Shown: positions 8,006-38,641 of the stretch, in pieces
Layout: every line of letters starts with the position of its first letter
Position numbering within the stretch: position 1 is the stretch's first letter
IMG/VR virus record: IMGVR_UViG_3300045006_000100
Span: 1-41,234 of that record
From: a virus
Taxonomy: Duplodnaviria; Caudoviricetes
Reading direction: 5' to 3' (one strand)
Length of the DNA stretch: 41,234 nt
The notes under the pieces: model-generated
What the model saw: the letters and a program-made list of their open reading frames with translations, nothing else
What the model was told of the DNA's origin: nothing
The model's database searches: none
Program-made: the position numbers and the translations under genes

Positions 8006-8029
8006 GCCAGGGCCGGAGACGGCCCTGGC
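8006..8029 (+). terminator. GC-rich hairpin after the capsid gene (stabiliser or weak terminator)
   Basis: GCCAGGGCCG-GAGA-CGGCCCTGGC: 10-bp stem with GNRA loop; no U tract. Confidence 0.55.
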
Positions 8030-9307: not shown

Positions 9308-10792
9308 ATGAGCATAGCCTTTGACCTGGTCCCGTCCAACGCCATCGCGTCCGGCGTTTTCGTGGAGCAGAAGTACAAGCGGGCCGGCGTTCCCGGTCCC
9401 ATCCCGCAGCGCATCGCCGTGCTGGGTCAGTACAACGCCGGCAAGACGCCGACCGTCAACGTGGCCAAGAACGTGACCAGCGCCGACGAAGCCGCCAGCC
9501 TGTTCGGCTACGGCTCCATGTTGCACCGCATGGCCAAGAAGCTGTTCGACGCCATGGGCGCCGGAGCGGTCGACGTAGATTGTTTCCCGCTGGCCGCCGG
9601 AACCGGCGCCGCCACCGGCGGAACCATCACCGTGAGCGGTACCGCCAGCGCCGCTGGCACCATCAGCCTGTACATCGCCGGAGACCTGATCCAGGTTCCC
9701 GTTGCGTCCGGTGACAGCGCCACTACCATTGCCGCGGCTATCAATGCCGCTATCAATGCCGCTACCAGCTTACCGGTAACGGCTACTGTGGCTGCCGCCG
9801 TCGTTACCCTGGCGCCGCGCTGGGTAGGCCTGTCGGCCAACAGCATCACCATCCGCCAGGACCTGGGTAGCGGCCAGGCCAGCGCCGAGCCCACTGGCGT
9901 CACCCTGACCATCGTGGCATTGGGCGGTGGCGCCACCGACCCGGCTATTGATACCGCGTTGGCCAACTTCGGCGACACCTGGTACACCTGGGTGGTAACC
10001 CCGTACAGCACCGACACCAGCTTAGTGATGCTTGAGGCGGCCGGCGAGACCCGCGTGGGCCCCGGCGTCAAGCGGCCGTTCGCTGGCGTCTGCGGCTACA
10101 TCGATACCCGCACCAACTTCCTCACCTGGCTAAACAGCCGCAACAGCCCCTGGACTTCCGCCATTCCGGTGGAAGGATCGCCAAACCTTCCCGGCGAGAT
10201 CGCCGCTTCCGCCGTTGGCAAGGCCGCCGTGAGTGCCCAAGCCAACCCGGCCCGGCCGTTCAAGACTCTGGCCATTCCCGGAATCATGCCGGGCACCGCC
10301 GCCAACTGGACCTACGCGCAGCGCAATGCCGTCGAGGCCGCCGGTGGTTCGTCCACCTTCCTGGCAGCCGATGGCCTGGTGCACATCCACGACATGGTTA
10401 CCACCTACGTCACCAACGCCCTTGGTGCTGTGGACGAGTCTTGGCGCTTCACCGTCACCATCACCAACGTGCAGGCCAAAATCTACAGCCTGGACCAGCT
10501 GTTCCTGTCGGCGCCGTTCGACCGGGCCATCGTGGTGGACGACGCCGCGGTCACTGGCCTGGACTACGCGGTCAGTCCCAAGGTGGTCAAGGCCTTCATC
10601 ATCGACTTGATCGACAAGCAGTGGATTCCGAACGCCTGGAGCAAGGAGCGTGACAGCATCGTGGCCGGCATCGTGGCCGAGATCGACGTTGCCAATCCTG
10701 GCCGCATCAATGTCTTGGTGCCGGACGTCATCGCCGTCGGCCTGCGCATTATGGCCGTCAAGTACCAGTGGTCCTTCGCGGCCGCCGCCTGA
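9308..10792 (+). CDS. Tail sheath protein (Mu gpL-like)
   Basis: FGYGSMLHRM, AGTISLYIAG, GGATDP, PARP and GRINVLVP motifs; 494 aa. Confidence 0.95.
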   Translation: MSIAFDLVPSNAIASGVFVEQKYKRAGVPGPIPQRIAVLGQYNAGKTPTVNVAKNVTSADEAASLFGYGSMLHRMAKKLFDAMGAGAVDVDCFPLAAGTGAATGGTITVSGTASAAGTISLYIAGDLIQVPVASGDSATTIAAAINAAINAATSLPVTATVAAAVVTLAPRWVGLSANSITIRQDLGSGQASAEPTGVTLTIVALGGGATDPAIDTALANFGDTWYTWVVTPYSTDTSLVMLEAAGETRVGPGVKRPFAGVCGYIDTRTNFLTWLNSRNSPWTSAIPVEGSPNLPGEIAASAVGKAAVSAQANPARPFKTLAIPGIMPGTAANWTYAQRNAVEAAGGSSTFLAADGLVHIHDMVTTYVTNALGAVDESWRFTVTITNVQAKIYSLDQLFLSAPFDRAIVVDDAAVTGLDYAVSPKVVKAFIIDLIDKQWIPNAWSKERDSIVAGIVAEIDVANPGRINVLVPDVIAVGLRIMAVKYQWSFAAAA

Positions 10793-10804: not shown

Positions 10805-11188
10805 ATGGGAGTGAGAGCGGGCGACATTCGCCAGGTAAAGATCAACAGCCGGGAGTTCGACCCGAAGGGTGAGGACGGCAACGTCAACATCGACGTGGGC
10901 GGCTTCACCAATACCTACGCGCTGAACGGCAACGGCACCGGCCACATCACGCAACGCCGCAAGGCTGCCGGGTTCAGCGACCTTCCGCTGTCGCTGGACG
11001 ATGCGCGCAAAGACCTGGAATTCCTCCAGAAGATCGCCGACGACGGTGACCCGGTACCGGTGGTCATGGTCCTGGCCAGCGGCAAGACCTACAGCGGCAG
11101 CCTGGTCCTGGTCGGCGACCTGGGAAAGGCCACTGGTGACGGAATAGCCACTGTGGAGATGCGAGGACAGAAGTTCGAGCAAATCTGA
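10805..11188 (+). CDS. Tail tube protein
   Basis: 127 aa after the sheath; SD AGGAGG; LASGKTYSG motif. Confidence 0.85.
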   Translation: MGVRAGDIRQVKINSREFDPKGEDGNVNIDVGGFTNTYALNGNGTGHITQRRKAAGFSDLPLSLDDARKDLEFLQKIADDGDPVPVVMVLASGKTYSGSLVLVGDLGKATGDGIATVEMRGQKFEQI

Positions 11189-11193
11189 TAAGC

Positions 11194-11211
11194 CGCCGGC
11201 GAAAGCCGGCG
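11194..11211 (+). other. GNRA hairpin after the tail tube gene
   Basis: CGCCGGC-GAAA-GCCGGCG. Confidence 0.7.
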
Positions 11212-11216
11212 CACTA

Positions 11217-11288
11217 CCTGGGCGAACGCAGTGGAGCGTGGCCGGTTCCTCCGGCCGGCCTGACGCGGTTCGAGCCCGCGGCCCGGGA
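11217..11288 (+). ncRNA. tRNA-like cloverleaf (non-decoding) in the tube-chaperone intergenic region
   Basis: Acceptor CCTGGGC/GCCCGGG+A; D arm ACGC-AGTGGA-GCGT; GCCGG-TTCCT-CCGGC arm; T arm CGCGG-TTCGAGC-CCGCG. No CCA, G at position 8, aberrant anticodon loop. Confidence 0.7.
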
Positions 11289-11312
11289 AAACCGTTTCGG
11301 AGGCGGGAAACC

Positions 11313-11726
11313 ATGAGTAACGAAAGCACCATAGGCGAAGACGTGGCGCTGGCCGAGATTGCCAGCATCAGCCAGGAATTCGACATCACCATCGACCACG
11401 ACAAGCAGCAGACCATCCTGCCGGTCGTCATGCAGGGGCGGCTGTACCTGGACGGCGACGTCATTGTCTACACGCTGGCGCGGCCCGTCGGGCAATTGCT
11501 GGAGTTGCGGTTCAGCGAGCCCACCGGCGGCCAGGCCGAGCGGGCTGGCAAGGGCGTCAAGGCCATCAAGCGGCCGGACGGTAGCAGCGAGATTGACGTA
11601 GGCGAAGCCACCCGTATGGTCAACCAGCTGGCCAGCGCCATGACTGGCGTGTCGGTGGGCCAGTTGCTGGACCTGCGCGCCCGCGACCGCAAGATCATGG
11701 AAGCCATCGTCGGTTTTTTCGACTAG
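11313..11726 (+). CDS. Tail assembly chaperone (G/E-type)
   Basis: SD GGAGG before ATG 11313; lies between tube and tape measure; ends ...GFFD on a slippery T run. Confidence 0.85.
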   Translation: MSNESTIGEDVALAEIASISQEFDITIDHDKQQTILPVVMQGRLYLDGDVIVYTLARPVGQLLELRFSEPTGGQAERAGKGVKAIKRPDGSSEIDVGEATRMVNQLASAMTGVSVGQLLDLRARDRKIMEAIVGFFD

Positions 11727-11899
11727 GCGACCCGGAGGAAATCCGACGGACGATATGGGCCGTGGGCGGCCGGTTTCACCTGGACGCCCGCGCCATGCCG
11801 CTTTCGGTCCTGCGGTTCTGGTATGAGGGGCACGTCGCCATGGCCGAAGAAGAGGCGGCAGAAGTCGAGAAGGCCAAGGCAGCGGCCGGGGGGAGATAG
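11712..11899 (+). CDS. -1 frameshift extension of the tail chaperone (GT/E'-type)
   Basis: GGT TTT TTC at 11712-11720. The -1 frame is open (RLGDPEEIRRTIWAVGGRFHLDARAMPLSVLRFWYEGH...) to TAG 11897-11899, which overlaps the tape measure GTG. Confidence 0.8.
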
Positions 11900-13728
11900 T
11901 GGCCACCAAGTTCACCATCAGCACAGTGTTCAACGCCATCGACCACATGACCGGCCCCATCGAGAAGATGAACGCTAAGGTGGGGAAGCTGGGCGACAAG
12001 ATCGACAACGCCGGCAAGGCGGCATCGTCCAGGTTTGGCAACCTGGGGGGTATCGCCAAGGGTGTTGGCGTGGCCATGGGCACGGCCGCAGTGGCCGCCG
12101 GTGCCGCCGTCTGGAAGCTTGCCACCCACGCGCAGGAAGCCGCCGACAGCGTAATGGACACCGCTGGGGCGCTTGGCATCAGCACCAGGGCCCTCCAGGA
12201 ATACCGGTATGTCGCCCAGTTGTCTGGCATGGAAACCGCCGACATGGACGCGGCCCTCACCAAATTGACCGTCAACCTGGGCAAGGGCGGCAAGGAAATG
12301 GACGCCACCCTTGCCATGCTGGGCCTAACCGCTGAGCAACTACGCGCGGCAGGCCCTGACCAGGTGCTGGAGTTGGTGGCGGAAGGTTTCAAGAACGTGA
12401 GCGACCCGGCGGCCAAGGCAGCCATCACCACGCAGCTATTCGGCAAGTCGTCGGTCAGAATGGTCGGGGCGCTGTCAGGAGGTGCCGAGGCAATTGCCAA
12501 GCTTCGCGAGGAAGCGCAAAAGTCTGGCTACGTCATGGACGAAACTGCCCTGGCAACTGGTGCTCGCATGGGAGACGCCATCGACCGGATGAAATTTGCC
12601 GCCGAAGGCGCGGCCAACAAGCTGGGGATTATGTTCATACCGGTGATGGAGAAGATGATCACCAGCGCCACCGGATTCCTGCAGAAGGCTGGGCCCGGCC
12701 TGGCTGGAACACTGGGCGGCCTGGGCGACATCGTCTCCACCACCTTCGACGCGCTGATGCCGGTGCTCAATTCCGTGTTCGGCATCCTGGGGCCGGTGCT
12801 TGGCTTGGTCGCCAGCGTCATGGGTGGTTTGGCGCCGTTGTTCGCCATGATTGGAACCCTGCTGGGCAAGATCATGCCGCTGGTCGGCGGACTGGCCGAG
12901 CTGGTCGGCGCCGTCTTGGCACCTGCATTCGAGCTGTTGATGCCGGTGTTGGAGCCGGTCTTCGACATTCTCGGCTTGGTCTTCGAGATCGTGTCGCCGA
13001 TTTTCAAGGTGCTGACCGCCGTGGTCCGAGGGGCCGTCAAGGTATTCAAGGACTTGCCGTGGCCGATCAAGGCGGTCATCGGCGTCATATTCCCGTTCAT
13101 CGGTATTCCCATGCTTATCAAGGCGGCCTGGGAGCCGATCAAGAAATTCTTTGGTCCAATATGGGACACCATCAAAGCCGGCGTGGAGGTGGCATGGACA
13201 GCCATTGAGGCGTTCTTGACTGGCCTGTGGGACAACATCACCAAGACGGCTACCGAGGTCTGGAACGCCATTCCGGAACTTGCGCAGTCTGCGGCCGCGG
13301 CGTTCATGTCCGCCTGGCAGGCCGTCGGCGACTTTTTCACTGGGCTATGGGGCGGAATCGTCAAAGCCTTCGATGATGCCGTCGCGTGGATCTTGCAGGC
13401 AATCCAGCCAATCTTGGACGTCATCAACACTGTCGGCAACGGACTGCAGGCGATCGGCATTGGCGGGCCCGTACTGACACCGGCTGTGGCTGGGGCCGGT
13501 CCTACCAATGCCCCCGCCTCGTCCACTATCGGCGGTGCAATGCCGGCCTGGATGAAGCCATCCGTCCCAATCTCGTCGCAGACCACGACCATCAACCGCA
13601 ATACCACCACGACTGGCACGCTGAACGTCAATTTCCCGAACGCCCCGGCCGGTACATCGGTCAAGCAGACCGGCCAAGCGCCCGGCATCAAGGTCAACAT
13701 GGGCAAGACAACAGGGGGGAGCCGATGA
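11899..13728 (+). CDS. Tape measure protein
   Basis: 609 aa, Ala/Gly-rich helical, Trp/Phe periodicity; follows the chaperone. Confidence 0.92.
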   Translation: MATKFTISTVFNAIDHMTGPIEKMNAKVGKLGDKIDNAGKAASSRFGNLGGIAKGVGVAMGTAAVAAGAAVWKLATHAQEAADSVMDTAGALGISTRALQEYRYVAQLSGMETADMDAALTKLTVNLGKGGKEMDATLAMLGLTAEQLRAAGPDQVLELVAEGFKNVSDPAAKAAITTQLFGKSSVRMVGALSGGAEAIAKLREEAQKSGYVMDETALATGARMGDAIDRMKFAAEGAANKLGIMFIPVMEKMITSATGFLQKAGPGLAGTLGGLGDIVSTTFDALMPVLNSVFGILGPVLGLVASVMGGLAPLFAMIGTLLGKIMPLVGGLAELVGAVLAPAFELLMPVLEPVFDILGLVFEIVSPIFKVLTAVVRGAVKVFKDLPWPIKAVIGVIFPFIGIPMLIKAAWEPIKKFFGPIWDTIKAGVEVAWTAIEAFLTGLWDNITKTATEVWNAIPELAQSAAAAFMSAWQAVGDFFTGLWGGIVKAFDDAVAWILQAIQPILDVINTVGNGLQAIGIGGPVLTPAVAGAGPTNAPASSTIGGAMPAWMKPSVPISSQTTTINRNTTTTGTLNVNFPNAPAGTSVKQTGQAPGIKVNMGKTTGGSR

Positions 13729-16842: not shown

Positions 16843-16871
16843 TTGCGGTTATTGCATCACAGTGATACAAT
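16843..16871 (+). promoter_or_regulatory. Sigma70-type promoter with operator copy 3 (TTGCATCACAGTGATACAA, 16852-16870)
   Basis: TTGCGG-N17-TACAAT, the same geometry as the 2742 promoter. Confidence 0.8.
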
Positions 16872-34205: not shown

Positions 34206-34233
34206 TTGCAACTTTATATCACTGTGATATAAT
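34206..34233 (+). promoter_or_regulatory. Strong promoter with operator copy 4 (TTATATCACTGTGATATAA, perfect, 34214-34232)
   Basis: TTGCAA-N16-TATAAT with TG extension, between the divergent PadR and exonuclease genes. Confidence 0.88.
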
Positions 34234-35552: not shown

Positions 35553-35571
35553 ATATATCACTGTGATATAT
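35553..35571. promoter_or_regulatory. Operator copy 5 (ATATATCACTGTGATATAT, perfect)
   Basis: 9-bp inverted arms in an AT-rich intergenic gap. Confidence 0.82.
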
Positions 35572-38343: not shown

Positions 38344-38641
38344 GAAAATTTACGACCTAGCCGTCGCGGTCGGCAGCTACACCGACAACAGCGGCCAGTC
38401 GAAAAACCGCTACCAGACCATCGGCGCCGTCATGCAGAAGGATGACGGCGGCAAGTTCATCATCATGGAGCGCTGGTTCAACCCGGCCGGCGTGCCGTTC
38501 GATGCCGGCCGGGGCAACAGCTTTCTGGTCAGCATGTTCGAGCCGCAGGCGCGCAACCATGGCGGACAGGGACATCAATCTGGCAGCGGCACGACGCACG
38601 GGCCAAATCCGCAGGGGTATCAAGATGACATCCCCTTCTGA
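38333..38641 (+). CDS. Putative non-canonical ssDNA-binding protein
   Basis: SD AGGAG; short beta domain, Gly/Gln linker and C-terminal DDIPF. Confidence 0.7.
   Translation: MATRKIYDLAVAVGSYTDNSGQSKNRYQTIGAVMQKDDGGKFIIMERWFNPAGVPFDAGRGNSFLVSMFEPQARNHGGQGHQSGSGTTHGPNPQGYQDDIPF

Follow-up and report, generated by a model that had tools for sequence, protein, structure and literature searches.

The window, i.e. the whole stretch of DNA analysed, is an entire virus record of 41,234 bases from a lake phage, a temperate myovirus whose head is of the lambda type and whose tail is of the Mu type. Its tail operon, whose features all lie on the + strand, contains (i) a tail sheath gene (Mu gpL-like; 9308-10792; phrog_165, E = 1e-115), (ii) a tail tube gene (10805-11188; phrog_4699, E = 2e-18), several homologues of which match PF10618, (iii) a gene encoding the tail assembly chaperone G (11313-11726, with its ATG at 11313) and (iv) a tape measure gene (11899-13728; phrog_8462, E = 4e-32). 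The match of the chaperone to PF10109 (TAC_7) is weak here (E = 0.021, under the cut-off); the chaperones of the relatives L018 (E = 2e-9) and L004 (E = 9e-7) pass it. The chaperone gene ends in the slippery sequence GGTTTTTT, which is followed by an open -1 frame predicted to encode the GT extension (11712-11899), and the TAG of this frame overlaps the GTG of the tape measure gene (to 11901). Because of this arrangement, the chaperone ribosome binding site (RBS) likely feeds G, GT and, via coupling, the tape measure.

A spacer of 124 nt, longer than any other non-coding gap in the set of tail genes compared, separates the tube and chaperone genes. It contains (i) a GC-rich GNRA (GAAA) hairpin predicted by folding (11194-11211), (ii) a tRNA-like cloverleaf without CCA (11217-11288) and (iii) a hairpin enclosing the chaperone RBS (11292-11306), with the Shine-Dalgarno sequence (SD) GGAGG (11299-11303) placed in its loop and 3' stem. 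A scan of the spacer detected no sense-strand promoter and no U-tract terminator, and a terminator reading of the spacer hairpin was rejected for lack of a U-tract. It is likely that the GNRA hairpin protects the 3' end of the sheath-tube message. A hairpin of the same design, with 10 bp, a GNRA loop and no U-tract (z = -3.9), is located immediately 3' of the capsid gene (8006-8029).

The cloverleaf was predicted by both the MFE and the centroid folds. It is composed of (i) an acceptor stem of 7 bp, one of them U-G (11217-11223/11281-11287), (ii) a D stem (11226-11229/11236-11239) with the loop AGUGGA, preceded by G8 and A9 and followed by G26, (iii) an anticodon stem (11241-11245/11255-11259) closing the 9-nt loop UUCCUCCGG (11246-11254), which shrinks to 5 nt (CCUCC) if two U-G pairs close, (iv) the variable loop CUGA and (v) a T arm (11264-11280) with a 5-bp stem (11264-11268/11276-11280) and the loop UUCGAGC, which forms a 12-bp top half with the acceptor stem. 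A73 follows. A sequence-only reading of this DNA had described a 72-nt cloverleaf with a 7-bp acceptor stem and a canonical T arm, a non-canonical or 5-nt anticodon loop, G at position 8 and no CCA, between an upstream GAAA hairpin and a hairpin occluding the SD, all of which is borne out by the sequence and the folds. The stability of the fold relative to shuffled sequences is unremarkable at 72% GC (z = -1.33 for the core and -1.09 for the spacer). The evidence that the window cloverleaf exceeds chance comes from its relatives, through the z-scores of the elements in five of them (-2.7 to -3.8), the match of a model built from two sequences, and stem covariation.

Tube homologues served as the entry point to viral, metagenome and genome collections, in which 284 loci had a complete tube gene. 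Of these, 274 had a callable next gene and gave 166 distinct junctions, and 10 were dropped. At 44 junctions (20 overlapping, 14 short and 10 long), tube identity to the window is 40% or more, and 6 of the 10 long ones carry a cloverleaf: the window, L018, L020, L067, L072 and, in a looser form, L045. Its position is constant, after the tube stop and before the chaperone start. Of the 44 near relatives, 34 have abutting or overlapping genes and no long spacer, which argues that phages can do without the element in the course of evolution. In a sheath tree, all six cloverleaf phages fall within one 12-row clade (99*) beside six short-spacer phages, with at least 3 changes of spacer state; L045 was placed there via the sheath gene of its own contig, L108. 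L045 also has a short U run, and true terminators are located upstream of the elements of L003, L152 and L160.

A model whose only members were L020 and L072, which are close kin, placed the window copy precisely at 11217-11315 (41.4 bits, E = 6e-7) and also recovered L067, L018 and a real tRNA in L104; it missed L045. A second match in the window, T-arm-like (38425-38492, E = 0.96), is weak and was treated as probably due to chance. MAFFT did not bring the cloverleafs into register, and columns anchored on motifs were therefore used to count pairs. The five copies that align best keep all 35 acceptor pairs and all 25 T-stem pairs despite heavy sequence change, with double changes at 7 of 7 acceptor and 3 of 5 T-stem positions (10/12 in all); L045 keeps 5/7 acceptor and 4/5 T-stem pairs. 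Thus, the comparison with relatives proposed in the sequence-only reading has uncovered compensatory stem changes in an element present at the same junction in five relatives, within a set that totals only six copies. The motif GGUUCRA occurs in the T arm of all six. The D and anticodon arms differ in length, and the D-loop GG is absent from L067. A GC hairpin 3-8 nt upstream of the cloverleaf and a CCGY-loop-GCGG hairpin over the SD are each found in 5/6 copies. The nucleotides after the acceptor stems are AAAA, CAAA, CAAA, CAUA and AUCC, and RCCA is absent from this class.

The sole variant obtained from DNA contigs, a strain variant of the window element (depth 2.9), differs by 10 substitutions and 2 indels. 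Five of the substitutions were located; these and both indels lie outside the stems. The GNRA hairpin and CUCCG are kept, with the loss of one loop C. A single-protein scan of viral contigs with the tube gave no match; the same scan with the chaperone protein gave one weak unrelated locus, and that with a chaperone alignment only the contig of L020. A pattern scan returned 21 stretches; just two of them were tail junctions, and the locus set included both beforehand. The class-specific cloverleaf pattern was found in 0/151 Spirochaetota genomes; a tube alignment matched 16 of 401 genomes of this phylum, and none of those junctions folds as a cloverleaf. One Spirochaetales MAG carries a related prophage without the element.

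ARAGORN calls the window element tRNA-Gly(TCC), and not a pseudo or undetermined tRNA, as had been anticipated from the sequence. In addition, the copies of L020 (40.8 bits) and L072 (37.4 bits) exceed the cut-off of the Rfam tRNA family (RF00005). A functional tRNA-Gly is expected to have U8, a 7-nt loop with a purine at position 37, the acceptor pairs G1-C72 and G3-C70, and U73; the four tRNA-Gly genes fetched for comparison start with GCGGG and have U73. The window copy is at odds with these features, having C1-G72, U3-G70, A73, G8 and a 9-nt loop, and a search of Rfam with it gave no tRNA or other credible match at E<10. Rfam families other than tRNA gave no match to the element. ARAGORN reads four of the copies as Gly, unassigned, Trp and Ala, and therefore no anticodon is conserved among the orthologues. 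These results support the earlier view that the cloverleaf does not decode. Decay of a former tRNA gene is not indicated either, because the stem changes are fully compensated. The reading as an ordinary tRNA-Gly gene is thus already contradicted, and an ordinary or decaying gene of this kind is extremely improbable.

A detailed inspection of the anticodon loop revealed a feature missed by the sequence-only reading. In the window, the loop sequence CCUCCG (11248-11253) is complementary to CGGAGG of the chaperone RBS (11298-11303), with one additional G-U pair. The corresponding pairings are CUCCAU/AUGGAG in L020, CUCCAUU/AAUGGAG in L067 and L018, and CUCCA/UGGAG in L072; the register differs in L045 (UCCUU/AAGGA). 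A CUCC:GGAG core is therefore present in 5/5 well-formed copies. This core cannot covary, because the SD sequence is fixed, but the extended pairs do: pair 7 is G-C in the window and A-U in the four others, and pair 8 is G-U versus U-A, which amounts to approximately two independent events. The duplex of the window loop with its own RBS (-11.1 kcal/mol) is more stable than those with the RBSs of the relatives (-8.5 to -9.0 kcal/mol). Among 65 loops of real tRNAs, none pairs as far with four of the RBSs, and 2 do so with that of L072. L020, L072 and L045 fall below the 6-bp pairing cut-off of our automatic screen. The SDs of the cloverleaf class are strong (median -9.3 kcal/mol).

The interpretation of the spacer as an mRNA device was therefore only partly adequate: a conserved, non-decoding tRNA-like mRNA element does lie at the boundary between the tube and the chaperone-tape measure genes, while its pairing with the RBS had been overlooked. 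The proposed separation of abundant tube from low-copy chaperone also needs care, because gpG is not simply scarce: in lambda, many gpG are described to bind per gpGT, at a ratio of 30:1 (PMC5009743). The suggested alternative, a released decoy tRNA acting against defences that target tRNAs, such as anticodon nucleases, is weakened by the same comparison, because the "anticodon" is unconserved and changes together with the RBS. Such a decoy would be abundant late in infection and the elbow is kept in most copies; nevertheless, with a loop that tracks the RBS, no promoter of its own and a location fixed at one junction, we consider it very unlikely.

Comparison with 70 tRNAs identified initiator tRNA-fMet as the best match for L020, L072 and L067. 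The T arm and the 3' side of the acceptor of L020 share 23 of 24 bases with E. coli tRNA-Met, and the loop CUCCAU equals CUCAU of tRNA-fMet plus one C. In contrast to tRNA-fMet, the elements lack CCA and have loops of 7-10 nt, and the best matches of the window, L018 and L045 copies are to other tRNAs and are weak. This suggests a tRNA-fMet origin for L020, L072 and L067, and not for the window copy.

The search was extended to spacers of 60-170 nt in the wider tube family, using as the criterion a hairpin loop, nested in an outer helix, that can form 6 or more base pairs with the region of the RBS. Such pairing was found in 53 of 70 spacers (33/48 clusters), compared with 2-19% when cores were shuffled and 17-27% when RBSs were swapped, and 39 clusters contain 31 distinct loop-RBS helices. 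Loop-RBS pairing, and not the tRNA elbow, is the trait common to the wider family. The majority of the scaffolds are three-way junctions (e.g. L004:1882-1987, L002:1882-1964, L003:1867-2026 and L384:1073-1163), which occur in the cultured phages VP16T, AeroV_348, SppYZU01, PY6, SFCi1 and PD0307 and in approximately 40 viral contigs; in Vibrio phage H188 a terminator takes the place of the element. Other scaffolds at the same junction (L147:1876-2028, L198:1882-2010, L348:1567-1695, L040:3364-3450 and L331:1564-1654) show long stems and, in L147, the T-arm-like GGUCCGAAUCC; most contain an RBS-complementary loop. At L075:1314-1600, an extra ORF apparently lies between the tube and chaperone genes.

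The three-way elements resemble the cloverleafs in the flanking genes, the position, the nested loop that pairs with the RBS of the chaperone and the closing stem of about 7 bp with a stacked 3' arm. This third arm is stacked directly on the closing stem, with a gap of 0 in 39/46 cases. They differ from the cloverleafs in lacking a D arm and a T-loop, in often having ACCA, in the upstream copy or look-alike of the RBS (30/46) and in the weakness of the paired RBS (median -3.5 kcal/mol). NCCA is placed exactly after the 7-bp stem in 7/27 clusters (approximately 0.4 expected from composition) and is absent from that place in 20/27; G+1 is present in 23/27. A model of the three-way class gave no match to the cloverleafs and thus lends no support to homology between the two classes. 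The consensus of HDV-like ribozymes includes J4/2; an assignment of the three-way class to these ribozymes was rejected by inspection, as J4/2 is lacking.

It is rather likely, judging from this comparative sequence evidence, that the tRNA-shaped element, conserved and carrying a loop complementary to the chaperone SD, lowers the translation of G, GT and the coupled tape measure gene. In the late polycistronic RNA, the loop would dock on the RBS hairpin, either by a kissing interaction or once the hairpin has opened, and would compete with the 30S subunit; output from a strong SD would thus be held down, with expression of the tube gene unrestrained. We place translational control of the chaperone at the core of this reading because loop-RBS pairing is common to all scaffolds. 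The strong SDs of the cloverleaf class would fit such a brake. The three-way class fits repression less well, because its paired RBSs are weak, and the effect may have either sign there. Relatives devoid of the element would likely reach the same balance via stop-start coupling.

An opposite, positive role, in which the loop-RBS helix would mimic a tRNA-mRNA pair or keep the start region open and thereby aid ribosome loading, was also considered. The repZ pseudoknot and the dicistrovirus IGR IRES are RNA elements of such a kind, and the weak SDs of the three-way class, the fMet-like top half of three copies and the CAU:AUG pairing in L018, L020 and L067 would agree with it. However, the helix of the cloverleaf class includes GGAG itself, the CAU:AUG pairing is lost in the window and L072, the distance to the start keeps no fixed frame and there is no conserved leader ORF, and we judge a positive role to be quite unlikely. 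Control by a leader peptide and pseudoknot of the repY-repZ type presumably needs a conserved leader ORF with a fixed frame or stop. This model was rejected for the three-way class, in which the frames are distributed 8/5/2 and the stops range from -44 to +414 (15/27 clusters); in the cloverleafs, a scan for leader ORFs found no SD-led start.

The geometry of the proposed brake deserves attention. Only 2-5 nt separate the acceptor stem from the closed RBS hairpin, or 8-10 nt from the first paired base if the hairpin opens. Given the dimensions of the canonical tRNA L-shape, a kissing loop formed in cis across such a linker is hard to reconcile, and docking in cis would therefore need an opened hairpin or a fold more acute than the L of tRNA. 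Occlusion of an RBS by the middle loop of a four-way junction has a precedent in the cobalamin riboswitch of the env8 class (L5-L13 kissing loop), described as a four-way junction with a T-loop docking between the outer arms, in which the loop of the middle arm pairs with the loop of a downstream hairpin holding the RBS (PMC10907184). The tail element is likewise predicted, from pairing potential and covariation, to be a four-way junction with a middle loop able to pair with the RBS hairpin. It differs in having the T-loop on the 3' arm, as in tRNA, in the lack of an evident ligand pocket and in its site inside a phage tail operon, and the cobalamin models of Rfam gave no match to it. By its predicted structure, it is an element with the cobalamin kissing-loop topology and not a member of that family.

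This topology, the alternative RBS states (own hairpin or loop pairing), the upstream look-alike of the three-way class and the known autoregulation of phage genes by pseudoknots (PMC3014915) would all suit an operator gated by a ligand or protein, where docking would depend on the binding of a phage protein (the chaperone or the tube protein) or of a tRNA-binding host factor, as in the case of T4 gp32 or the cobalamin riboswitch. Against this, few junction nucleotides are conserved beyond those of tRNA type, the scaffolds are very diverse, the three-way model gives no match to the cloverleafs, and neither a ligand nor a binding protein is indicated. We regard gating of this kind as improbable.

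Plant mitochondrial t-elements and mascRNA are tRNA-like processing signals. They share with the tail element, as do the C4 RNA of phages P1 and P7 and the phage M3 RNA, both reported to be RNase P substrates (PMC11143913), a non-coding tRNA fold within a longer transcript and a 12-bp acceptor-T arm; the tail element differs from all of them in the pairing of its anticodon loop with the RBS of the next gene and in the lack of RCCA. The 12-bp acceptor-T helix capped by a T-loop, typical of t-elements, is thus present, and the 3' RCCA is absent. RNase P is described to measure 12 bp from the T-loop and to cut acceptor-T minisubstrates, with ACCA as its other determinant besides the top half and T-loop (PMC11143913). 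CCA terminates only 8 of the 70 tRNA genes fetched, which derive mostly from Spirochaetota. A second layer of the brake may therefore be processing, plausible because the 12-bp top half and T-loop are kept, ACCA occurs in the three-way class and a GNRA hairpin lies upstream: RNase P would cut at 11216/11217 and RNase Z perhaps after 11288, so that the GNRA hairpin would form the 3' end of the sheath-tube message. We consider the presence and the absence of this layer about equally probable.

Processing might even be the sole function, with RNase P and/or RNase Z cutting a tRNA mimic and parting the sheath-tube message from the genes downstream, and with an incidental match between loop and RBS. 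The top half and T-loop are indeed strictly kept while the D and anticodon arms vary, in agreement with the substrate preference of RNase P (PMC11143913); the protective hairpin 3-8 nt upstream (5/6 copies) and the excess of NCCA and G+1 in the three-way class point in the same direction. Punctuation alone would leave the loop-RBS complementarity and its covariation unexplained, however, and it is at variance with the lack of RCCA after the cloverleaf acceptors, of the D-loop GG in L067, of NCCA in 20/27 three-way clusters and of a T-loop on their third arm. We hold it to be improbable as a full explanation.

The brake on the chaperone may be part of a broader scenario, which we find possible but doubtful. 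The lineage would have captured a tRNA (probably tRNA-fMet) that gained an anti-SD by insertion of one base into its loop, giving rise to a processing-gated switch with the topology of a cobalamin riboswitch. The intact RNA would shut the RBS, and cleavage by RNase P/Z or a phage protein would change its state, setting both the time and the scale of the synthesis of G, GT and the tape measure relative to the tube. The cloverleaf, the three-way junction with ACCA and stop-start coupling would then be interchangeable ways of setting the tube:chaperone ratio.

Our literature searches returned no description of the element, although the supplement of PMC5737381 and the alignments of PMC10690425 may bear on its novelty. 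Among the candidates presented by Fremin et al. (2023), DNAVirus_2722, 5800, 6391 and 8604 are located upstream of Phage_TAC_7 genes and share with the element a structured RNA within 25 nt of such a gene; compared by description and not by sequence, they differ in length (37-60 nt) and in their gut, plant and built habitats (PMC10690425). The element is real and conserved, has no Rfam family of its own and would exert anti-SD translational control on a tRNA fold, with possible processing by RNase P/Z. If so, it would clearly exemplify the reuse of a tRNA fold as a regulator within an mRNA, in which the anticodon loop recognises the SD of the same message. Apart from the G/GT frameshift, little is known about how tailed phages adjust chaperone to tube dosage when both genes share one late transcript; the element provides a mutable handle on it, and the three-way form is available in cultured phages. 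Throttling of the chaperone and tape measure could, speculatively, also matter for defence, because Avs17 and Avs18 are reported to sense both proteins (PMC12803255). The results also caution that, among the "tRNA genes" annotated within the tail operons of phages, some may be regulatory RNAs. At L104:2430-2590, in an unrelated phage, a degenerate tRNA-like stretch adjoins real tRNA genes, with its T arm directly before the RBS GGAGGCGG.

The window also contains four perfect copies of the palindrome ATCACWGTGAT (2755-2765, 16856-16866, 34218-34228 and 35557-35567) and 7 copies at one mismatch (0.41 expected). Those at 2755-2765 and 16856-16866 overlap a TACAAT -10-like box in spacers of the late region. 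It is likely, from their sequence and placement, that these palindromes are repressor operators, two of them within the structural region.
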